Shown here piece by piece: positions 36,043-49,866 of a stretch of 64,000 nucleotides of DNA. Source of the DNA: Candidatus Methylomirabilota bacterium (GTDB lineage: Bacteria; Methylomirabilota; Methylomirabilia; Rokubacteriales; CSP1-6); the NCBI GenBank assembly GCA_046723845.1, contig JBKOVG010000159.1, positions 764 to 64,763 on the forward strand, in the 5' to 3' direction. The stretch's first letter is position 1. The number at the start of each line of letters is the position of its first letter. The notes under the pieces are model-generated. The model ran no database searches. It was not told the origin of the DNA and saw only the letters and a program-made list of their open reading frames with translations. A program made the translations under genes and the position numbers.

Positions 36043-37035
36043 ATGAGGACGTCGCACTTTGCTCGCATGGGCATTCTGATCCTGAGCATGCTCTCCCTCC
36101 CTGCCGCCCTGGAGGCGCAGCCGAAGGGGAAACTGGTGCGGATCGGCCTCCTGGACTTCGGTGCGCCGAATCCCTCGAGCGAGGCACGATGGAAAGCGCT
36201 TCGCGAGCAGCTGCGCGAGCTGGGCTTCGTTGAGGGACAGAACGTCGCCTACGAGCCCAGGTGGGCAAACGGACAGGTGGATCGCCTGCCCGCCCTGGCT
36301 GGCGAGCTGGTCAGCCTCAAGGCCGATATCATCGTGACGGCCACCGGCGATGCCGCCCTCGCAACCAAGCGGGCGACCAGCTCGATCCCCATCGTCTTTG
36401 CCACCACCCCTGATCCCGTGCGCTTGGGGCTCGTGCCAAGCCTGGCCCGGCCAGGCGGAAACGTTACCGGAGTGACCTCGCTGAGCAGTGAACTGTCGGG
36501 GAAGCGTCTGGAGCTTCTCAAGCAGACGCTCCCGCGCGCCTTTCGCATCGCTGTCCTGAACGATCCCGAGAATCGCTCCTCCGAGTTCATCCTGCACGGC
36601 GTGGAGAGCGTGGCGAAGTCCCTTGACGTCGTCGTGCAGACGGTGGACGTGCGGAGTCAAAACGACTTCGATGCTGCCTTCTCGTCCATGAAGCGATCAC
36701 GCGCCGACGCCGCCATCCTGGGCGTGAACACACCTTTCCTCGCCCATCGCCAGCGCCTCGCCGAGCTCGCGATGTCGCAGCGGCTCCCGATGATGACGCC
36801 GTCGAGGGAGTATGCCGAAGCGGGGGCTCTCCTCAGCTACGGCACCGACTATCCCGCTCAGTTCCGCCGGGTGGCCGTGTATGTGGACAAGATCCTCAAG
36901 GGCGCCCGGCCCGGCGATCTGCCCATCGAGCAGCCGACCAAGTTCGAGCTGGTGATCAATCTCAAGACGGCCAAGGCGATCGGGCTGACCATTCCGCAGT
37001 CGGTGCTGGGGCGGGCGGACGAGCTGATCCAGTAG
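36043..37035 (+). CDS. ABC-transporter-type substrate-binding protein (ABC_sub_bind / BMP-like family), orphan
   Basis: 330 aa with a signal peptide. Reads ...IGLLDFG...ADIIVTATGDAALATKRATSSIPIVFATTPDPVRLGLVPSLARPGGNVTG...PIEQPTKFELVINLKTAKAIGLTIPQSVLGRADELIQ. A paralogue is at 49888-50886. Confidence 0.8.
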   Translation: MRTSHFARMGILILSMLSLPAALEAQPKGKLVRIGLLDFGAPNPSSEARWKALREQLRELGFVEGQNVAYEPRWANGQVDRLPALAGELVSLKADIIVTATGDAALATKRATSSIPIVFATTPDPVRLGLVPSLARPGGNVTGVTSLSSELSGKRLELLKQTLPRAFRIAVLNDPENRSSEFILHGVESVAKSLDVVVQTVDVRSQNDFDAAFSSMKRSRADAAILGVNTPFLAHRQRLAELAMSQRLPMMTPSREYAEAGALLSYGTDYPAQFRRVAVYVDKILKGARPGDLPIEQPTKFELVINLKTAKAIGLTIPQSVLGRADELIQ

Positions 37036-37081
37036 GGGCGGAGCGCTGGCGCGGCTCGGCCCGCGCGTATACACTCCCCCT

Positions 37082-39406
37082 GTGACCTCGCCTCAGGACC
37101 TGATCGGCGCCTCGCCGCGGCGGAAGGAAGACCGGCGGCTCCTCACGGGCGCTGGCCGCTACGTGGACGATCTCACCCGTCCCGGCATGTTGCACATGAT
37201 CGTGGTGCGCAGCCGCCACGCCCACGCCCGCATCGTCAAGATCGCCCTCGAGGCGGCGCGCGCTTTGCCCGGCGTCGCGGCCGTATGGACGGCCCTCGAT
37301 CTGCCCGAGATGAAGAACGCCATGCCCGCCGCCTACGGCGGCACCTACAAAGGCCGCGCCTTCCAGGTGCCTGTGCTCGCGCACGAGCGCGTGCGCTACG
37401 TCGGCGAGGGCGTGGCGGTGGTGCTCGCGGAGAGCGTGTATGCGGCGGCGGACGCGGCGCAGGCCGTGGAGATCGAGTACGATCCCCTGCCCGTGGCCTC
37501 GGACACGGAGGCGGCCGTCACCGCCGAGCCGCCGATTCACGAGTGGCCCGACAACACCACGCTGCCCGTGGGCGCGCACGTCGGCGACGTCGATCCGGTG
37601 TGGGGGCAGTGCAACCTCGTGGTCAGCGAGCGCATGCGGCATCCGCGCATCGCGGGCGCGGCCCTCGAGACGCGCGGGGCCTTCGCCTATCGCGACGCGG
37701 ACACCGGCGCCCTCACCGTGTGGTCCTCCACGCAGAATCCCTACTCGCTCCGCGACTCGCTCACCGCCGTGCTCGACCTGCCCGCAGAGCAGGTTCGCGT
37801 GATGGTGCCCGACGTGGGCGGCGGCTTCGGCCCCAAGGGCTCGATCTATCCCGAGGAAATGCTGGTGGCAGCGGCCGCCCTCAAGACGAATCGGCCCGTG
37901 AAGTGGATCGGGAGCCGCGCCGAGGACCTGATGACGAGCGGGCACGACCGCGACCAGGTGCATCAGGCGCGCGTGGGCTTCCGGAGTGACGGGACCATCC
38001 TCGCCGTGGAGGACGTCTTCCTCGCCGACGTGGGCGCCTATCCCATCGCGGGGGAAGGCCTCACCCTCAACACGGTGAACCACTTCTGCGCGCCCTATCG
38101 CGTGGCCAACTTCAGGAGCGCGGGTAAGAGCGTGGTCACCAACAAGACGCTCAACGGCGCCTATCGGGGCGCGGGACGGCCCGAGGCCAACTTCGTGATG
38201 GAGCGTCTCATGAACCTGGGCGCGCGCCGCCTCGGCATCGATCCCGCCGAGCTGCGCCGGCGCAATCTCGTCCGGCCCGCGGACATGCCCTACAAGCCCG
38301 GCCTCATCTACAAGGACGGCACGCCCATCGCGTACGACCCCGCGGACTTTCCCGCCTCGCTCGACCGCGCGCTTTCGCTCCTGCGCTACGACGAGTGGCG
38401 CGCGCGACAGAAGGCGCAGCCGCGCGGGCCTCGACACCTGGGCATCGGCGTGTCGTGCTACGCGCAGGGCTCGGGGCTGGGCCCCTACGAGGGCGCCACC
38501 GTGCGCGTGGATCCGAGCGGCAAGGTCTACGTGTTCATCGGCGTCACCGCGCAGGGTCAGGGACATGCGACCACGCTGGCGCAGATCGCCGCCTCCGAGC
38601 TGGGCGCGAACTTCGACGACGTCATCGTCCAGGCCGGCGACACCACGCAGTTTCCTTTCGGCATGGGCACGGGCGGCAGCCGCGTCATGGCCAACTCCGG
38701 CCCCGCCGTGGCCCAGACCGCTCGCGAGGTGAGGCAGAAAGCGCAGGCCGTGGCCGCCGAGCTACTCGAGGCGGCGCCGGCGGACATCCGCATCGAGCGC
38801 GGCCTCGCCTTCGTAGCTGGTGTGCCCAGCAAGAGCATCACGCTCGCGCGTCTCTCGCTGGCCGCCATCAAGTCCAAGGCGCTCAAGCCGCTCGGCGAGC
38901 CCGGCCTCAACGCCTGCACCTACTTCTATCCCGGCACCGTCACCTGGGCCTTCGGTACCCAGGCCGCCGTCGTCGAGGTGGACGCGGAGTCGTGCCAGGC
39001 GCGGCTGCTCGCCTACGCCGTGGTGCACGACCCGGGACGCGCCGTCAATCCCGTGATCGTGGAGGGGCAGCTCCAGGGCGGCGCCGTCCAGGGCCTCGCC
39101 GCCGGGCTCCTCGAAGAACTCGTGTATGACGAAGCGGGCCAGCTCCTCACAGGGAGCTTCATGGACTACGCGATTCCAAAGTGCGACGACGTGCCGTCGA
39201 TCACCGTCGCCCTCACCGAGCACCGCTCGGTCATCAATCCGCTCGGTGTGAAGGGCGTGGGCGAGAGCGGCGCCATCCCGGGTGCGGCGGTTATCGTCAA
39301 CGCCATCGAGGACGCGCTCGCCGATCTCGACGTGGTGCTGCGCGAGGGCCCCGCCACGCCCACGCGCATCTGGAAGGCCCTGCAGGACGCGCAGCGCCGT
39401 GGGTAG
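37082..39406 (+). CDS. Xanthine-dehydrogenase-family molybdopterin-binding large subunit (form-II CoxL-like)
   Basis: 774 aa. N-terminal PRRKEDRRLLTGAGRYVDD. Active-site loop LNGAYRGAGRPE (an AYRGAGR-type motif, not VAYRCSFR). No adjacent medium or small subunit genes. Confidence 0.85.
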   Translation: MTSPQDLIGASPRRKEDRRLLTGAGRYVDDLTRPGMLHMIVVRSRHAHARIVKIALEAARALPGVAAVWTALDLPEMKNAMPAAYGGTYKGRAFQVPVLAHERVRYVGEGVAVVLAESVYAAADAAQAVEIEYDPLPVASDTEAAVTAEPPIHEWPDNTTLPVGAHVGDVDPVWGQCNLVVSERMRHPRIAGAALETRGAFAYRDADTGALTVWSSTQNPYSLRDSLTAVLDLPAEQVRVMVPDVGGGFGPKGSIYPEEMLVAAAALKTNRPVKWIGSRAEDLMTSGHDRDQVHQARVGFRSDGTILAVEDVFLADVGAYPIAGEGLTLNTVNHFCAPYRVANFRSAGKSVVTNKTLNGAYRGAGRPEANFVMERLMNLGARRLGIDPAELRRRNLVRPADMPYKPGLIYKDGTPIAYDPADFPASLDRALSLLRYDEWRARQKAQPRGPRHLGIGVSCYAQGSGLGPYEGATVRVDPSGKVYVFIGVTAQGQGHATTLAQIAASELGANFDDVIVQAGDTTQFPFGMGTGGSRVMANSGPAVAQTAREVRQKAQAVAAELLEAAPADIRIERGLAFVAGVPSKSITLARLSLAAIKSKALKPLGEPGLNACTYFYPGTVTWAFGTQAAVVEVDAESCQARLLAYAVVHDPGRAVNPVIVEGQLQGGAVQGLAAGLLEELVYDEAGQLLTGSFMDYAIPKCDDVPSITVALTEHRSVINPLGVKGVGESGAIPGAAVIVNAIEDALADLDVVLREGPATPTRIWKALQDAQRRG

Positions 39407-39424
39407 GCTGACGGTGCACCCTCA

Positions 39425-39449
39425 CCCTCTCCCTCGGGGAGGGAGAGGG
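39425..39449 (+). terminator. Strong hairpin after the CoxL-like gene (putative terminator)
   Basis: CCCTCTCCCTC-GGG-GAGGGAGAGGG is a perfect 11-bp stem starting 19 nt after the stop. No U-tract follows. Confidence 0.4.
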
Positions 39450-39469
39450 AGCGAGTCGTTGACCGCGCG

Positions 39470-40114
39470 ATGAAAGACAAGAAGCCCCCATCCTCGACCA
39501 TCGTCCTCCTCGTGCGCCATGGCCTCACCCCAACCACGGGCGTGAAGCTGCCCGGCCGCGCGCGCGGCCTCCACCTCTCCGACGAGGGGCGCCGCCAGGC
39601 CGAGGCCGCCGCCGCCCGCATCGCCAAGATCGAGAAGGTGGTAGCCATCTACTCCTCGCCGCTCGAGCGCGCGCGAGAGACGGCGAGCATCATCGCCAAG
39701 GCCCGCAACATGGCCGTGCGCATCGAGCGCGGTCTTCTGGAGGTGGACATCGGCAAGTGGACAGGCCTGGCCCTCAAGGAGGCGGCGGCCAAGCCTGAGT
39801 GGCGCGCCGTGCAGCAGCACCCGAGCGGCTTCCACTTCCCCGGCGGCGAGTCCTTCACCGAAATGCAGGCCCGGGTTACCAGCGCGCTGGCGCGGATCGT
39901 GGCGCGGCACACGGGCAAGATCATCGTGGCCGTGTCGCATGCCGATCCCATCAAGGCCGCGGTGGCCCACGCCATCGGCACGCCGCTCGATCTCTTCCAG
40001 CGCATCGTCATCGGCACCGCGTCGATCAGCGCGCTCGCCTACAGCCTGTCGAGCAGCGCGGCCCTCACCGTCAACTCCGTGGACGGCGACCTCGCGCACG
40101 TGGGTATCAAGTGA
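39470..40114 (+). CDS. Histidine-phosphatase (phosphoglycerate-mutase) superfamily protein, putative phosphomutase of the three-gene system
   Basis: 214 aa. The catalytic RHG motif is LLVRHGLT, followed by SSPLERARETA and SHADPIK. Confidence 0.85.
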   Translation: MKDKKPPSSTIVLLVRHGLTPTTGVKLPGRARGLHLSDEGRRQAEAAAARIAKIEKVVAIYSSPLERARETASIIAKARNMAVRIERGLLEVDIGKWTGLALKEAAAKPEWRAVQQHPSGFHFPGGESFTEMQARVTSALARIVARHTGKIIVAVSHADPIKAAVAHAIGTPLDLFQRIVIGTASISALAYSLSSSAALTVNSVDGDLAHVGIK

Positions 40115-40626
40115 GCCAGTCCTTCGACTTCGAGCAGCCGGACTTCTTCACGGCGGGAGCCATCGGCAAGCCCGGTGAGCGCGTCTTCTACCTGCAGGCG
40201 CGGGAGCGAGGCTCGGTCATCACGCTGAAGTGCGAGAAGGGCCAGGTGAAGTCGCTCGGCGACTATCTCGCGGGGCTCATCACCAAGCTGGGGGCGCCCA
40301 AGGGCAAGGTGCCGACCCGGATGGACCTCCTCGACTTCGCCGAGCCGGCGTGGATCGTGGCCACCCTCGGCGTGGGCTACGACGAGGACAACGACCGCAT
40401 CATCGTGGAGGCCCACGAGCTGTTCGAAGAGGAAGAGGAAGGCCAGCGCGCGGGCGAGGAGGCCGCCTCGGCCCGCCTGCGCATCACGCGCGAGCAGGCG
40501 CAGGCCTTCGTCACCCGCGCGGCCGAGCTGATGACGGGCGGACGTCCCAGCTGTCCCGTGTGCAGCGAGCCCATGGACACCAGTGGTCACATCTGCCGGC
40601 GCAGCAATGGGCATATCCTTCACTGA
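40111..40626 (+). CDS. DUF3090-family protein
   Basis: 171 aa from GTG 40111, in GTGA overlap with the upstream gene. Reads FDFEQPDFFTAGAIGKPGERVFYLQARERGSVITLKCEKGQV... with C-terminal CPVCSEPMDTSGHICRRSNGH. Confidence 0.8.
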   Translation: MSQSFDFEQPDFFTAGAIGKPGERVFYLQARERGSVITLKCEKGQVKSLGDYLAGLITKLGAPKGKVPTRMDLLDFAEPAWIVATLGVGYDEDNDRIIVEAHELFEEEEEGQRAGEEAASARLRITREQAQAFVTRAAELMTGGRPSCPVCSEPMDTSGHICRRSNGHILH

Positions 40627-41314
40627 TGCGCTGGAGCTCCTGAGGCACGGCGCCGTCACCGTCAAAGGCCGCATGCCCTGGGCGAGCAACGTGACCCTGC
40701 TCGCCGAGGTGGAGCGCGATGGCGCCTGTGTGCGCGCCATCTACAAGCCCGGCCACGGCGAGCGCCCCCTCTGGGACTTCCCCCCCGGCCTCTACAAGCG
40801 GGAGGAGGCCGCCTATCTCTTCTCCGAGGCGCTCGGCTGGGGGCTCGTGCCTCCCACCATCGTGCGCGAGGGCCCGTTCGGTGAAGGCTCCTTCCAACTC
40901 TTCGTGGAAGCCGAGTTCGAGCAGCACTGGTTCACCATGCGCGAAGATCCGCGCCACCGCGAGCGCCTGCAGAAGATCTGCATCTTCGACTTCGTCGCCA
41001 ACAACGCCGACCGCAAGAGCGGTCACTGCCTCCTCGGGCCCGACAACCTGATCTACGCCATCGACAACGGCCTCTGCTTCCACACCGAGCTGAAGCTGCG
41101 CACGGTGATCTGGGACTACGCGGGCGAAGCCATCCCGAAGGACATGCTGGAGGACCTGAAGAGATTCGTGAAGGGCGGCCTGACCACGCCCCTCGCCAAC
41201 ATGCTCGCTCCCGACGAGCAGCAGGCCCTACTGGTGCGCGTGCAGGCTCTGGCCGACTACGCGCGCTTCCCGGAGGACAGGAGCGGCCACCGCTATCCCT
41301 GGCCGCTCGTGTAG
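40607..41314 (+). CDS. SCO1664-family protein (PI3/4-kinase-like fold)
   Basis: Reads AIYKPGHGERPLWDFPPGLYKREEAAYLFSEALGWGLVPPT...FDFVANNADRKSGHCL...IDNGLCFH, with kinase-like catalytic-loop and DxG-like motifs. ATG 40607 overlaps the DUF3090 3' end; 40583 is an alternative start. Confidence 0.8.
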   Translation: MGISFTDALELLRHGAVTVKGRMPWASNVTLLAEVERDGACVRAIYKPGHGERPLWDFPPGLYKREEAAYLFSEALGWGLVPPTIVREGPFGEGSFQLFVEAEFEQHWFTMREDPRHRERLQKICIFDFVANNADRKSGHCLLGPDNLIYAIDNGLCFHTELKLRTVIWDYAGEAIPKDMLEDLKRFVKGGLTTPLANMLAPDEQQALLVRVQALADYARFPEDRSGHRYPWPLV

Positions 41315-41447
41315 GAGAGGGCATCCACGTCGCGGAAGTTTTGCATCGAACCGAAAGTGTAGCGCAGGCGGGGCCGGAGTTTCGCTTGCCGACGGCGGGC
41401 AACCTCGCTACGCTCCGAGCGACCCTCTTCAACGAGGAGGAGCCGCC

Positions 41448-42677
41448 ATGCGGTACCTGTTCCGCAATGTGAAGCTGCTGGATCCGGCGCAGGATGAGCT
41501 CCTGGGCGGCCACGAGGTCCTCGTCGAGGGCGAGCTGATCCGTGAGGTGTCGGACCGGCCCCTCCAGGCCGGCAACGCCACCGTGATCGACGGCGGCGGA
41601 CGGACGCTCATGCCGGGGCTGATCGACTGCCACGTGCACGTGTTCCTGAGCGAGCTCAACATCCGGAGCCTGGAGCACGTGCCGCTCACCCTCATGACGG
41701 CGCGCGCGGCCGAGGCGATGCGCGCCATGATCGATCGCGGCTTCACCACCGTGCGCGACACGGGCGGCGCGGACTGGGGGATCAAGGCCGCGGTGGAGAC
41801 CGGGCTCCTCGCGGGGCCGCGCCTCTTCATCTCGGGGCGCGCCATCGGGCCCACGGGCGGGCACAGCGACTCGCGGCGGCGCACCGACGACGGCTCGTCG
41901 TGCGGTTGCTGCAACGCCATGGTGTTCTGCATGGCCCTGGCCGACGGCGCCGACGAGGCGCGGCGGAGCGCGCGCGAGCAGATGCGGCAGGGCGCCGACC
42001 AGGTGAAGATCATGATGTCGGGCGGCGTCGCCTCGCCTTACGACCCGCTCGACAGCCTGCAGTACAGCCCGGCCGAGGTGGCCGCCGTGGTGGAAGAGGC
42101 GCATGCTTTCGGCCGCTACGTGTGCGCCCATGCCTATACGCCCGAGGCCATCACGCGCGCCATGCAGGGTGGCGTGCGCACCATCGAGCACGGCAACCTG
42201 ATCGACGAGCCGGCGGCGCGCCTCATGGCCGCCCGGGGCGCCTTCCTCGTCGCCAACCTCGTCACGTACCAGGCCATGAAGGAACGCGCGGCGCAGTTTG
42301 GCATGTCCGCGGACATGCTCGCCAAGAACGACCTGGTCCTGGAGGCGGGCTATCGCTCGCTCGAGATCTGCAAGCGCGCGGGCGTACCCGTGGCCTACGG
42401 CAGCGATCTCCTGGGGCCGCTCCAAGAGGAGCAGAGCCGCGAGTTCCTCATCCGCGGCGAGGTGATGAAGCCCATCGAGGTGATCCGCGCCGCCACCACC
42501 ATCGGCGCCCGTGTGCTCCGCCGCGAGGGGAAGCTCGGAGTGATCGCGCCGGGAGCCTTCGCCGATCTGCTCGTGGTGAACGGCAATCCTCTGCTGGATC
42601 TGGGCCTCTTCCAGAAGCAGGGCGCGCATCTCTCGGCCATCATGAAGGGCGGAGCATTCCACAAGAACCTGCTCTGA
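41448..42677 (+). CDS. Amidohydrolase-superfamily metallohydrolase
   Basis: 409 aa. The HxH motif is MPGLIDCHVHVF, followed by VCAHAYT and HGNLID, then C-terminal GVIAPGAFADLLVV. Confidence 0.85.
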   Translation: MRYLFRNVKLLDPAQDELLGGHEVLVEGELIREVSDRPLQAGNATVIDGGGRTLMPGLIDCHVHVFLSELNIRSLEHVPLTLMTARAAEAMRAMIDRGFTTVRDTGGADWGIKAAVETGLLAGPRLFISGRAIGPTGGHSDSRRRTDDGSSCGCCNAMVFCMALADGADEARRSAREQMRQGADQVKIMMSGGVASPYDPLDSLQYSPAEVAAVVEEAHAFGRYVCAHAYTPEAITRAMQGGVRTIEHGNLIDEPAARLMAARGAFLVANLVTYQAMKERAAQFGMSADMLAKNDLVLEAGYRSLEICKRAGVPVAYGSDLLGPLQEEQSREFLIRGEVMKPIEVIRAATTIGARVLRREGKLGVIAPGAFADLLVVNGNPLLDLGLFQKQGAHLSAIMKGGAFHKNLL

Positions 42678-42721: not shown

Positions 42722-43582
42722 GTGCCGGTGCGACTCTTCGACCGGAAGTTCGGCGCGGGGTTCCTCGCCCGGGTGCCGACCGAGCCCGGCGTCTACCGTC
42801 TCTACGACGAGGCCGGCACCCTCCTCTACGTGGGCAAGGCCGGCAATCTCCGCCGCCGCCTCGCCCAGTACCGCACGGCGGGGCGGCGGAAGAAGGAGCG
42901 CAAACGCCGCGCCCTGGTGAAAGCGGCGGCCAGCATCGCCTGGGAGGTCAGTGAGTCTGCCCTCGACGCCGCCCTCATCGAGATCCGTCTCATCCAGAGG
43001 CTTCGCCCGCCGCGGAACGTAACGAGTGCCTTTTCGTTCCTCTACCCCTTCGTGGGAATCCGCGTCGAGGGCGACGAGACGTACTTCTGCTTCACCACCT
43101 CGCCCGCGGCCTTTCCCGCCTTCGAGCTGTACGGCGCCTTCCGCTCCCGCGAGGTGACGGGCGAGGCCTTCTTCTCGGTCATGCGGCTACTCCACTTCGT
43201 CGGCCACCCTGTGCCGCGCCATCGCTGCCGGCGCTCCGTCGTGCCGCGCCGCTCGCACGTGCTGGGATTCCGCCGCCTGCCCGCGGGAACGGTGGCGGGG
43301 TGGAGGCGCCTGCTCCGCGGCGAGTCGCGCGACGCGCTCGAAGCGCTCACCCTCGAGCTCACCGACCACGCGGGCGCCCGAGCCCGCGCCGCGCAGATCC
43401 GCGAGCACTTGGTTGCCATCGACCGCTTCTTCGAGGAGGAGGCCCGCGCCCTCGCTCGGGTCGTCTCGGCCACCGGCCACCGGAGCTATCCGGTGACTCA
43501 GCAGGAGCGAGACCTGCTTTTCACGACCTGGCGGGAAGCCAGCGCTCTGGCCGAGGTCTCAGCGAAGCGCGGCGATCGCTGA
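42722..43582 (+). CDS. GIY-YIG nuclease-domain protein (UvrC N-terminal-like, no UvrC C-terminal domains)
   Basis: 286 aa from GTG 42722. The GIY-YIG motif is PGVYRLYDEAGTLLYVGKAGNLRRRLAQY...EIRLIQRLRPPRN. Confidence 0.75.
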   Translation: MPVRLFDRKFGAGFLARVPTEPGVYRLYDEAGTLLYVGKAGNLRRRLAQYRTAGRRKKERKRRALVKAAASIAWEVSESALDAALIEIRLIQRLRPPRNVTSAFSFLYPFVGIRVEGDETYFCFTTSPAAFPAFELYGAFRSREVTGEAFFSVMRLLHFVGHPVPRHRCRRSVVPRRSHVLGFRRLPAGTVAGWRRLLRGESRDALEALTLELTDHAGARARAAQIREHLVAIDRFFEEEARALARVVSATGHRSYPVTQQERDLLFTTWREASALAEVSAKRGDR

Positions 43583-48224: not shown

Positions 48225-48388
48225 TGCCGGGCACTCTGCGGGGCTACGTGGCGTGTCGCCGATACTCCTTGGAGGCGCCCTAGTCGCACCTCGGCCGCGC
48301 GGCGCGACCTTGTCAAGAACGGCAGCCGGGCATAGGCTTGGCCTTCCCATGCTCACGTCGAGCGAGATCATGCTCCGAAGCGGCCCCC

Positions 48389-49333
48389 GTGCCTGAGCTG
48401 CCCGACGTCACCGTCTACATCGAGGCCCTCGACGCGCGCATCCGCGGCGCCCGCCTCGAGCGCGTGCGGTTGGCCAGCCCCTTCGTGGTCCGCTCGTTCG
48501 ATCCGCCCATCACCGCCGTGCACGGACGCACCGTCGGCGGGCTGCGCCGGCTCGGCAAGCGCATCGTGATCGAGCTCGACGGCGATCTGTTCCTGGTCAT
48601 CCACCTCATGATCGCGGGGCGGCTGCATTGGAGGCCGGCGGGAGCCAAGGTGCCGGGCAAGGTGGGCCTGGCCGCTTTCGACTTCTCCACGGGCACGCTG
48701 ACCCTGACCGAGGCCGGGACGAAGAAGCGCGCGGCCGTTCATCTGGTCAAGGGCGAGGCCGCGCTGGCCGAGCTGGACGCGGGTGGGATCGAGCCGCTCG
48801 GCTGCACGGCGGAGGAGCTCAGCGCCGCCATCACGCGCGAGAACCACACGCTCAAGCGCGCCCTCACCGACCCGCACATCCTCTCCGGCATCGGCAACGC
48901 GTATTCCGACGAGATCCTCCATCGCGCGAAGCTGTCACCGGTGCGGCAGACCCGTGCCTTGAGCGACGGAGAGCACGCGCGGCTCTTCGAGGCCATCCGC
49001 GCCACCCTCTATGACTGGATCGTGCGGCTGCGGGAAGAGGCCAGCGGGGAGTTTCCCGAAGGCGTCACGGCTTTCCGTCCCGACATGGCCGTGCATGGGC
49101 GCTACGGTCGCCCCTGCCCCGAGTGCGGCGCGCCCGTGCAGCGCATCCGTCATGCGGACAACGAGACCAACTACTGCGCGAAGTGCCAGACGGGCGGCAA
49201 GCTGCTCGCCGACCGCGCGCTGTCGCGCCTGCTCCGAGCCGACTGGCCGCGCACCCTCGAGGAGATGGAGGAGCGCCACGGGCGGGCCGTCCGGAGTAAT
49301 ATGGGCGGGCCCACGGGGAGGGGGCGTACATGA
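48389..49333 (+). CDS. Fpg/Nei-family DNA glycosylase/AP lyase
   Basis: GTG 48389 gives (M)PELPDV..., with the catalytic N-terminal Pro. H2TH is seen in DPHILSGIGNAYSDEILHRA, and the zinc finger is CPECGAPV...YCAKCQ. The track ORF starts 51 nt further upstream. Confidence 0.85.
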   Translation: MPELPDVTVYIEALDARIRGARLERVRLASPFVVRSFDPPITAVHGRTVGGLRRLGKRIVIELDGDLFLVIHLMIAGRLHWRPAGAKVPGKVGLAAFDFSTGTLTLTEAGTKKRAAVHLVKGEAALAELDAGGIEPLGCTAEELSAAITRENHTLKRALTDPHILSGIGNAYSDEILHRAKLSPVRQTRALSDGEHARLFEAIRATLYDWIVRLREEASGEFPEGVTAFRPDMAVHGRYGRPCPECGAPVQRIRHADNETNYCAKCQTGGKLLADRALSRLLRADWPRTLEEMEERHGRAVRSNMGGPTGRGRT

Positions 49334-49866
49334 TCACGGCACTCGAGTTCATCCAGGGCGGGCTCAAGCAGCTCCACGGCAACCTCGACAAGCAGCTCGA
49401 GAACATCACGCCCGATCAGCTTCACGCCGTCCCCGCGGGCAACCCCAAGGCCAACACCATCGCGTGGGGACTCTGGCACTACGCGCGCACCGAGGACAAC
49501 GTGGTCCAGTACATCCTGCAGAACAAGAAGCCGCCCATCTGGGTCGAGGGCGGCTACGCCGCGAAGACGGGCCTGCCCGAGATGGCGCAGGGCACCGGCA
49601 TGTCGACGGCGGAGGCGCAGGCCCTCCGCATCAAGGACCTCGCGGCCTTCAAGGAGTACATGGGCAAGGTGTGGGCCTCTACGGAGGCCCTCATCACCAC
49701 GAACGACCCCTCCCTCCTGGATCGGAATGTGACGGTGCGGCCGCTCGGCGAGATGCACGCCATGCGCGCTCTCGGCATGGTCTGCCTCACCCACGGCATG
49801 ACCCACTTCGGCGAGATCGAGCTGGCACGCACCATCGTGGGCGCGGGTCCGGTCTCCAGCGTCTAG
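49330..49866 (+). CDS. DinB-family (DinB_2) four-helix-bundle protein
   Basis: 178 aa, in ATGA overlap with the glycosylase gene. His-containing helices are WGLWHYARTED and LTHGMTHFGEI. Confidence 0.7.
   Translation: MITALEFIQGGLKQLHGNLDKQLENITPDQLHAVPAGNPKANTIAWGLWHYARTEDNVVQYILQNKKPPIWVEGGYAAKTGLPEMAQGTGMSTAEAQALRIKDLAAFKEYMGKVWASTEALITTNDPSLLDRNVTVRPLGEMHAMRALGMVCLTHGMTHFGEIELARTIVGAGPVSSV

Follow-up and report, generated by a model that had tools for sequence, protein, structure and literature searches.

Introduction

What does a small operon that is carried by M. tuberculosis and most actinomycetes do in a bacterium of another phylum? The operon (hereafter the trio) encodes a histidine phosphatase, a DUF3090 protein and a kinase of the SCO1664 family, and it is among the most widely conserved bacterial operons without an assigned function. 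The actinobacterial trio presumably corresponds to Rv2135c-Rv2134c-Rv2133c, MSMEG_4193-4191 and SCO1666-1664. A literature search for work on what DUF3090 or SCO1664 does returned no paper.

Here we describe a copy of the trio in a stretch of 64,000 nucleotides (the window) from a soil Rokubacteria genome, a MAG of Methylomirabilota (Rokubacteriales). An earlier note on this DNA had judged the setting of the genes to be non-actinobacterial, and the identity of the host bears this out. The Rokubacteriales copies serve as a natural control, in that the operon is intact in a phylum without mycothiol ligase and, in one family, without inositol-phosphate synthase (MIPS). This counts against the guesses that the trio provides MshA2 or an inositol head-group cycle, and shifts the focus to a self-contained kinase/phosphatase/adaptor module.

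Gene layout and family assignment

Three co-directional and overlapping ORFs on the + strand span positions 39470-41314. The first (39470..40114, 214 aa) encodes the histidine phosphatase (His_Phos_1, MSMEG_4193-type; PF00300, TIGR03848), the second (40111..40626, 171 aa) the DUF3090 protein (PF11290, TIGR03847) and the third (40607..41314, 235 aa from ATG) the SCO1664-family kinase (TIGR03843). The GTGA overlap between the phosphatase and DUF3090 frames at 40111-40114, which had been noted before, matches the sequence exactly. The 20-nt overlap of the DUF3090 and kinase frames (40607-40626) holds if the kinase starts at ATG 40607. An alternative start, GTG 40583, also lies in the open frame; the ATG is favored because 120 close homologs measure 233-235 aa. 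The GC3 of all three frames is 0.90-0.93, as in real genes of the host genome. The fixed gene order and tight junctions support the predicted operon. A consensus scan of 36800-42000 found no promoter or terminator sites, and the sole match of the trio to the PADLOC defense-system models (13 bits) was at chance level.

Of the family assignments in the earlier note, two stood at the level of model thresholds and one did not. TIGR03847 gave 150.0 bits against a cut-off of 117.25 (PF11290, 147 bits against 27), and TIGR03843 gave 261.7 bits against 172.4; the whole-genome search of the host with the latter returned a single copy at 254.9 bits. TIGR03848 fell short by 8.5 bits (195.3 bits against 203.85; 194.9 bits in the genome search), although it was the top model of the phosphatase by 55 bits. 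PF00300 matched this protein with 169.4 bits. The gene was assigned as the trio phosphatase through synteny and phylogeny, not by the TIGR03848 cut-off. The three genes are almost certainly the Rokubacteriales ortholog of the catalogued TIGR03848 / TIGR03847 (DUF3090) / TIGR03843 (SCO1664) operon, and the trio here belongs to an already catalogued system type rather than to a new kind. The three-gene system of Actinobacteria described in the earlier note agrees with the names of the TIGRFAMs models and with Chandra & Chater 2013 (PMC4255298).

The kinase and the phosphatase

The kinase contains FDFVANNADRKSGHCL and IDNGLCFH, and the catalytic residues that these motifs had suggested are present. 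The Lys, Glu, catalytic-loop Asp, and metal-binding His and Asp (K47, E66, D135, H140 and D153) are invariant among 33 diverse sequences and among 82 sequences; R136 and K137 are invariant as well. PF00454 gave 24.1 bits, under its gathering cut-off of 27.1. No solved structure was found for the kinase by sequence search. The top PDB matches of its AF2 model (pLDDT 92.4) were human PI4KII alpha and beta (E 6.5e-8, TMq 0.63-0.64, 19-24% identity). Judged from the model, the relation to type II PI 4-kinases is at the level of the fold only. By its residues and its predicted fold, the kinase appears to be competent.

The RHG motif read earlier in the first gene is found as LLVRHGLTP, and the 21 Rokubacteriales orthologs keep RHG together with the second catalytic His (SHADP; SH(A)DP). 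Among solved structures, 4ij5, a metal-independent phosphoserine phosphatase, is the nearest (E 2e-21). We take Rv2135c of M. tuberculosis to be the ortholog of the trio phosphatase. Rv2135c is a weak hydrolase of pNPP, PEP and sugar phosphates and lacks activity as a phosphoglycerate mutase; phosphoserine is absent from the substrates given in that paper (PMC3866925). The label of a putative phosphomutase, used in the earlier note, conflicts with these data, and the small-molecule substrate suggested there is a guess. The phosphomutase is also the core of the original TIGRFAMs idea, in which the two enzymes would catalyze successive steps of a pathway, the kinase phosphorylating a small molecule and the phosphomutase shifting the phosphate to a different position. 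The family name and the dPGM-like superfamily fit this idea, as does the constant presence of the kinase and the phosphatase-family enzyme together in the surveyed loci. However, we consider it improbable, since Rv2135c, a weak acid phosphatase, lacks mutase activity on 3-phosphoglycerate (PMC3866925) and no extra pathway enzymes are conserved beside the trio in three phyla. A shared operon would also suit a kinase and a phosphatase that catalyze two separated biosynthetic steps, a point against the module proposed below.

Conservation and neighborhood

The co-occurrence of the three genes elsewhere was confirmed. All 21 Rokubacteriales loci have the same gene order, with the phosphatase immediately 5' of DUF3090, and so do 73 of 80 loci sampled across three phyla (Rokubacteria, Acidimicrobiia and Chloroflexota). 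Contig ends cut six of the remaining seven loci, and one is without DUF3090. The 4-nt overlap between the phosphatase and DUF3090 recurs in 11 of the 20 other Rokubacteriales loci. The tree of the phosphatase and kinase consists of one clade per phylum; the trio is therefore vertically inherited in this order.

No neighbor besides the trio genes themselves is kept across the phyla. The neighbors in Rokubacteriales (SDR, Fpg/Nei, M20 peptidase, transporter, VWA/AAA, DLH and protoglobin) and those in Acidimicrobiia (UDG, FrhB-like, ETF, DAGK, GDPD and PdtaS) do not overlap.

Directly upstream of the trio in the window is an orphan gene for a CoxL-like molybdenum hydroxylase large subunit (37082..39406, + strand; Pfam Ald_Xan_dh_C, MoCoBD_1 and MoCoBD_2), with no CoxM or CoxS among the annotated genes neighboring it. 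Of the 21 Rokubacteriales loci, four have an ortholog of this type A directly 5' of the trio; a second paralog, type B, lies directly 3' of the trio in five loci of a sister family. The CoxL-like gene is a lineage-specific conserved neighbor of the trio and does not belong to it. A functional link, such as regulation or maturation of the hydroxylase by the trio in Rokubacteriales, would fit the two arrangements with two orthologue groups and the frequency of the association: a CoxL-like gene is within 10 kb of the trio in 12 of 21 loci and adjoining in nine, against a chance expectation of roughly 7% of loci (a rough estimate from about 22 paralogs in 6.3 Mb). Nevertheless, such a link seems highly improbable. 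These loci share descent, so that the counts are not independent, and a CoxL-like gene is not found beside the trio in Acidimicrobiia/Chloroflexota, where only one of 72 loci has one, at a distance. In the window, moreover, a REP-like GC-rich hairpin (39425..39449, no strand assigned; -36.2 kcal/mol, z -2.5) in the 63-nt spacer parts the CoxL-like unit from the phosphatase gene. The window contains this hairpin a single time, but genome-wide there are 61 copies of its motif CCCTCTCCC..GGGAGAGGG.

The DUF3090 protein

The DUF3090 protein begins with MSQSFDFEQPDFFTAGAIGKPGERVFYLQA and ends with CPVCSEPMDTSGHIC. The C-terminal CxxC...HxC knuckle that had been pointed out from the sequence reads C148-x2-C151...H160-x-C162. 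A sequence search found no solved structure for this protein. Its AF2 model (pLDDT 91.8) consists of two beta-sheet-plus-helix repeats in one chain, plus the zinc knuckle, and no enzyme-like fold was among the matches of the model. Invariant in the family are G19, G22, R24, F26, E42, K43 and R145, of which G19/G22/R24/E42/K43/R145 could form a ligand-binding or catalytic site. Going by sequence, DUF3090 evolves faster than its trio partners; identity to the window copy in the loci of other genomes is 29-56% for DUF3090 against 45-63% for the kinase. An Asn in the tail that follows the zinc knuckle is conserved in the sampled Rokubacteria, Acidimicrobiia and Chloroflexota copies, and it is the final residue in 41 of 76 sequences. 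In lineages in which the cysteines of DUF3090 are lost, no changes of the kinase motifs were found. Apparent DUF3090-kinase or triple fusions (P0167, P0124 and P0240) were rejected as evidence that the proteins interact, since their long Arg/Pro/Ala-rich wrong-frame stretches mark them as frameshift artefacts.

DUF3090 might itself be the substrate, phosphorylated by a PI4KII-like Ser/Thr protein kinase and dephosphorylated by the histidine phosphatase in a protein phospho-switch that would resemble partner-switching modules. Plant type II PI4Ks phosphorylate proteins, and PGAM5, Sts-1 and SixA are protein phosphatases of the histidine phosphatase superfamily; both points agree with such a switch, as do the phosphoserine phosphatase nearest to the trio phosphatase and the overlapping, tightly packed genes with near-constant co-occurrence, as for co-expressed genes. 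The T38 column is Ser/Thr in 93% of 76 sequences. However, T38 lies within a predicted beta-strand, and DUF3090 contains no invariant Ser, Thr or Tyr. In addition, the enzymes are found without their supposed substrate. An Arthrobacter genome carries an extra phosphatase-kinase pair, at a second locus, without DUF3090. C. glutamicum, known here from the score lines of a control genome in the profile searches only, has the kinase and is without DUF3090 by both DUF3090 models; it apparently keeps the phosphatase too, since the phosphatase model passes its cut-off in one control genome, presumably this one. A role of DUF3090 as substrate is therefore rather unlikely.

A different role is suggested by the fold. 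In a Foldseek search of the PDB, the four top matches of the DUF3090 model were all Pur-alpha, from fly and human (probability score 0.99). DUF3090 could accordingly be a PUR/PC4-like single-strand binder or mimic that guides the enzymes to DNA or RNA transactions, possibly end processing or repair. Several repair-related neighbors are in line with this role: a divergent upstream UDG-family gene in 50 of 80 loci, an Fpg/Nei-like gene no more than 10 kb away in five of the 21 Rokubacteriales loci, among them the window (48338-49333), and a GIY-YIG gene 1.4 kb downstream of the trio in the window. These genes nonetheless vary by lineage. Moreover, the model matches Pur-alpha only weakly (E about 1e-2, TM 0.42-0.50), none of 76 DUF3090 members matched the PurA, PC4 or Whirly Pfam models, and the family is uniformly acidic (median pI 4.56, median net charge -12). 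We know of no kinase of PI4KII-like fold that phosphorylates nucleic acids. Transposon mutants of Rv2134c are depleted at sub-MIC rifampicin, as are rnhC and uvrA mutants (PMC11329110), which again would suit a nucleic-acid role. On balance, we regard both the guiding role and the particular transactions as very unlikely.

Possible links to mycothiol, inositol and F420

PI4KII carries a membrane-anchoring Cys-rich insert, and the trio kinase sequence is without it. This counts against the explanation of the trio as an inositol/mycothiol module. In such a module the missing GlcNAc-Ins-P phosphatase (MshA2) or the PIP phosphatase would be the trio phosphatase, and inositol, an inositol glycoside or phosphatidylinositol would be the substrate of the kinase. 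In Actinobacteria, SCO1664 is "invariably closely linked" to mshC (PMC4255298), as late as 2026 the gene for MshA2 was listed as unidentified (PMC13156731), and the closest structures to the kinase are those of phosphatidylinositol 4-kinases; all three points agree with the explanation. MIPS is also present in the family of the window genome (f1).

The wider survey points the other way. MshC (TIGR03447) was over cut-off in 0 of 151 genomes of the phylum, with ordinary CysRS-level matches only, and no MshC-like gene was found within 8 kb of the trio in any locus of the three-phylum sample of 80. The mycothiol link was rejected on the first of these counts. MIPS was not found in any of the 11 genomes of the sister family f2 with a Pfam model and a protein query, and the kinase was over cut-off in 10 of them and a fragment in one. 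Several of these genomes are 95-99% complete in at most 30 contigs. PF07994 was useless as a MIPS probe because it also missed the positive controls. The inositol link was rejected as the kinase is kept while MIPS is missing from all f2 genomes; the absence of MIPS is compatible with imported inositol. CofD is widespread in the phylum, trio-less genomes included, and had no match in the kinase-bearing control genome C. glutamicum, and a link to F420 was rejected on these grounds. The trio is thus independent of mshC, MIPS and CofD. Since the phylum is without mycothiol ligase, the mycothiol and inositol explanations become less likely, and we consider both halves of the inositol/mycothiol module, the proposed phosphatase and the proposed kinase activity, quite improbable.

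Proposed function

Our preferred reading, held tentatively and at slightly less than even chances, is that the trio forms a self-contained module for reversible phosphorylation, in which DUF3090 is a partner without catalysis of its own. It builds on the family membership, operon conservation, catalytic residues, folds and independence from mshC, MIPS and CofD described above. The small kinase of type II PI4K-like fold, catalytically intact by its residues, would phosphorylate a hydroxyl group, and the histidine phosphatase, in a phosphatase and not a mutase role, would take the phosphate off again. We infer that the two enzymes act on one common substrate. DUF3090, in which an acidic Pur-alpha-like domain of two repeats is followed by the zinc knuckle and a flexible tail, is presumably non-catalytic, and may dock on the kinase/phosphatase or present or regulate their substrate. 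The lack of an enzyme-like fold match, the acidity, the faster evolution and the missing DUF3090 in C. glutamicum and at the second Arthrobacter locus favor this role. In the Rokubacteriales lineage, neither mycothiol nor F420 synthesis would supply the substrate as an intermediate, and it is probably no product of de novo inositol-phosphate synthesis.

A bolder form of this proposal is that the trio is an ancient, pathway-independent phospho-switch of at least three phyla, in which the enzymes act on or through DUF3090. We think this unlikely, as we do its two further elements, that DUF3090 is an acidic Pur-fold carrier, adaptor or nucleic-acid mimic, and that its tail past the zinc knuckle enters the active sites of the enzymes. 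Such a DUF3090 would be loosely comparable to LysW and other acidic carrier proteins with a zinc finger. If the phospho-switch were true, the mshC link in actinomycetes would be a secondary, lineage-specific coupling.

Comparison with known systems

The phosphoserine phosphatase 4ij5 is iPSP1/PspA of Hydrogenobacter thermophilus. [quoted passage not shown]

The kinase has PI4KII alpha/beta (4hnd, 4hne and 4wtv) as its best structural matches and shares with them the catalytic Lys, the DRK-x-GH catalytic loop and IDNG in place of DFG. It differs in its size (235 aa, against 337-489 residues of the PI4KII PDB chains), in lacking the Cys-rich palmitoylation insert, in scoring under the PF00454 gathering cut-off and in being retained in the family without inositol-phosphate synthase, which speaks indirectly against phosphatidylinositol as its substrate. 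The topology of the DUF3090 model, with two beta-sheet-plus-helix repeats in one chain, fits that of the PUR-repeat (Whirly/PC4-like) domains 3k44 and 8chu, but the match is weak. These domains are basic whereas DUF3090 is acidic, and the zinc knuckle is additional in DUF3090.

The closest system is the actinobacterial one. Its host is Actinomycetota, whereas that of the window trio is Methylomirabilota (Rokubacteriales), a phylum without MshC in the 151 genomes sampled. The window trio has no mshC nearby, uppP and cysQ are not among its annotated neighbors, and its phosphatase is the one that scores below the TIGR03848 cut-off. The C-terminus of its DUF3090 carries a conserved Asn-Gly-His tail, which the canonical Arthrobacter copy is without. 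The three families, the gene order and the overlapping junctions are the same in the two systems.

Results

The three genes on the forward strand of the window are a genuine copy, correctly identified, of an operon family that is known but uncharacterised; the host phylum is an unusual one. They encode a histidine phosphatase (39470-40114, 214 aa ORF), a DUF3090 protein (40111-40626, 171 aa ORF) and a SCO1664-family kinase (40607-41314, 235 aa counted from the ATG, a start that agrees with the 233-235 aa of 120 close homologues). Reading of the ORFs bore out the GTGA overlap (40111-40114), the 20-nt overlap (40607-40626) and all of the motifs quoted in the earlier note. GC3 of all three frames is 0.90-0.93, the value of real genes in this genome, where the genes are single-copy save for distant histidine phosphatase paralogues. 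The family assignments proposed there also held for DUF3090 (PF11290, 147 bits; TIGR03847, 150 bits, cut-off 117) and the kinase (TIGR03843, 261.7 bits, cut-off 172.4; PF00454 sub-threshold at 24.1 bits). The first gene product is a branch-1 histidine phosphatase (PF00300, 169 bits); its best NCBIfam match by far is the proposed MSMEG_4193 family (TIGR03848, 195.3 bits), 8.5 bits under the curated cut-off.

The nearest homologues belong to Rokubacteria (Methylomirabilota) MAGs; the window's genome is itself a MAG (6.3 Mb, 86% complete). Two kinase homologues 88-90% identical to the window's (P0007 and P0017) are labelled 'Candidatus Bathyarchaeia archaeon' and 'Terriglobales bacterium' at NCBI, probably from mis-binned or mislabelled MAG contigs. 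The kinase model exceeded its cut-off in 83 of 151 genomes of the phylum. By our count from the 151-genome table, these were 75/94 in the window's family and 10/11 in its sister family; the remaining sister-family genome has a kinase fragment, and one fragment was the only match beyond the two families. Phosphatase, DUF3090 and kinase follow in that order on one strand, with mostly overlapping or tight junctions, in all 21 Rokubacteriales loci (20 fetched loci and the window). A scan of named genomes gave 80 loci from Rokubacteria (kinase 59-63% identical to the window copy), Acidimicrobiia and other Actinomycetota (47-57%) and Chloroflexota (six, from Anaerolineae, Thermoflexus, Chloroflexia and others). 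The full trio recurs in the same order in 73 of these, so that the co-occurrence expected in the earlier note extends outside the window; six others are cut by contig ends, and one Arthrobacter locus lacks DUF3090. That locus, L100 of Arthrobacter sp. Leaf69, is an extra phosphatase-kinase pair, 52-57% identical to the window's proteins, which sits with the Acidimicrobiia-dominated clade in the phosphatase+kinase tree; the canonical trio of the strain lies elsewhere in its genome (L118, 29-41% identical). The DUF3090 and kinase genes usually overlap or lie near each other; in one locus of an uncultured bacterium (L045:574-1451) they are about 880 nt apart. Because the 78-row phosphatase+kinase tree resolves one clade per phylum (support: Chloroflexota 99%, Actinomycetota 93%, Rokubacteria 82%), the trio is, on this phylogeny, old and vertically inherited in Rokubacteriales and no recent import.

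The upstream flank of the trio has a gene for an ABC_sub_bind protein and, at 37082-39406, one for the large subunit of a CoxL-like molybdenum hydroxylase; the latter is an orphan and one of about 22 CoxL-like paralogues in this genome (another is at C383:649-2955 of the assembly). Over the 21 Rokubacteriales loci, a CoxL-like gene is the sole recurrent neighbour: the orthologue of the window's gene is directly upstream in 4/21, a second paralogue type is directly downstream in five sister-family loci, and either type is within 10 kb in 12/21. The annotated neighbouring genes include neither CoxM nor CoxS. The adjacency is lineage-specific synteny. The neighbourhood common to the Acidimicrobiia loci (L046-L117) is another one: in 50 loci a UDG-family gene lies upstream in divergent orientation, 46 loci have a ferredoxin-FrhB-like gene, and genes for ETF alpha and beta, a DAGK-type lipid kinase, a GDPD phosphodiesterase and PdtaS are also part of it. 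A functional link between the trio and the CoxL-like gene is highly improbable. The 63-nt spacer between the CoxL-like and phosphatase genes holds a GC-rich hairpin, CCCTCTCCCTCGGGGAGGGAGAGGG (39425-39449); the 6.3-Mb genome holds 61 copies of its motif, CCCTCTCCC(3-9 nt)GGGAGAGGG, which is therefore a REP-like repeat family. Downstream are an amidohydrolase, a GIY-YIG protein (42722-43582) and ChrA, then an Fpg/Nei-like glycosylase (48338-49333; 5/21 Rokubacteriales loci have such a gene no more than 10 kb from the trio) and a DinB_2-superfamily protein (49330-49866).

Discussion

SCO1664 is 'invariably closely linked' to the mycothiol ligase gene mshC in actinomycetes (PMC4255298); as late as 2026, MshA2, the mycothiol phosphatase, was named without a gene (PMC13156731). 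MshC exceeded its cut-off in 0/151 genomes of the phylum, and none of the 80 named trio loci has an MshC-like gene within 8 kb; judged by profile scores, true MshC is absent from the phylum. A few Rokubacteriales genomes, the window's included, carry a CysRS paralogue to which the MshC model gives a higher score (359-392 bits; cut-off 485) than the cysS model does. It lies at C258:6-1154 in the window's genome (L016, cut by the contig end) and also in L014 (G049) and L015 (G116); the complete G049 protein has 442 aa, and its match to the cysS model (466 positions) is confined to positions 2-374. Inositol-1-phosphate synthase (MIPS) is present in the window's family. In 11/11 sister-family genomes neither PF01658 nor the MIPS protein of the window's genome as query found it, the positive controls for this query being genomes of the window's family (82-100% identity). 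Because several sister-family genomes, 95-99% complete in at most 30 contigs, keep the trio without MIPS, the substrate is unlikely to come from de novo inositol synthesis, though inositol might be imported. That the trio acts in an inositol or mycothiol pathway is improbable. The F420 marker CofD is widespread in the phylum whether or not the trio is present, and had no match in Corynebacterium glutamicum, which has the kinase. The main value of the Rokubacteriales trio is as a natural control that uncouples the operon from the synthesis of mycothiol and of inositol.

For the AF2 model of the kinase (pLDDT 92.4), the best matches are the human PI4KII alpha and beta structures, with E 6.5e-8 and TMq 0.63; Fam20 kinases and PI4KA come next. 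K47, E66, D135-R-K, H140 and D153 are invariant on alignment, as the proposed kinase-like catalysis demanded, so the kinase should be active. The presumed trio phosphatase of M. tuberculosis, Rv2135c, is a tetramer that acts weakly as an acid phosphatase and not at all as a phosphoglycerate mutase (PMC3866925); that the operon encodes a kinase-plus-mutase pathway is quite doubtful. The most economical reading, tentatively held and somewhat short of probable, is an autonomous reversible-phosphorylation module, in which the PI4KII-fold kinase and the histidine phosphatase would work against each other and DUF3090 would be an acidic, non-catalytic adaptor or regulator.

For neither DUF3090 nor SCO1664 did we find a functional study in the literature; sub-MIC rifampicin depletes transposon mutants of Rv2134c, the presumed M. 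tuberculosis DUF3090 (PMC11329110). C. glutamicum matched the kinase model and neither PF11290 nor TIGR03847, which makes DUF3090 probably an accessory subunit; that lineage may have lost it. One control genome, presumably that of C. glutamicum, scored above the cut-off of the phosphatase model. That DUF3090 is itself the phosphoprotein substrate is rather unlikely: no Ser, Thr or Tyr position is invariant in the family alignment. The residues kept throughout are G19, G22, R24, F26, E42, K43 and R145. The predicted architecture (pLDDT 91.8) comprises two beta-sheet-plus-helix repeats, an acidic linker, a long helix, a zinc knuckle and a flexible tail. Its top four PDB matches are all Pur-alpha, weakly (E about 1e-2, TM 0.42-0.50). 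This Pur-like fold and the scattered repair-gene neighbours suggest a role directed at nucleic acids, which we consider very unlikely; profile searches with Pfam gave nothing for PUR, PC4 or Whirly in the family, which is strongly acidic (median pI 4.56).

The CxxC...HxC knuckle of DUF3090 is kept by 65 of the 76 members; four lack cysteine altogether. Directly after the knuckle, Asn166 of the window's protein (40606-40608) is 97% conserved among the 76 copies aligned, from Rokubacteria, Acidimicrobiia and Chloroflexota; this Asn is the C-terminal residue in 41/76 and is followed by 'GH' and a few residues in 29 of the other 33. The canonical Arthrobacter DUF3090 lacks this Asn.
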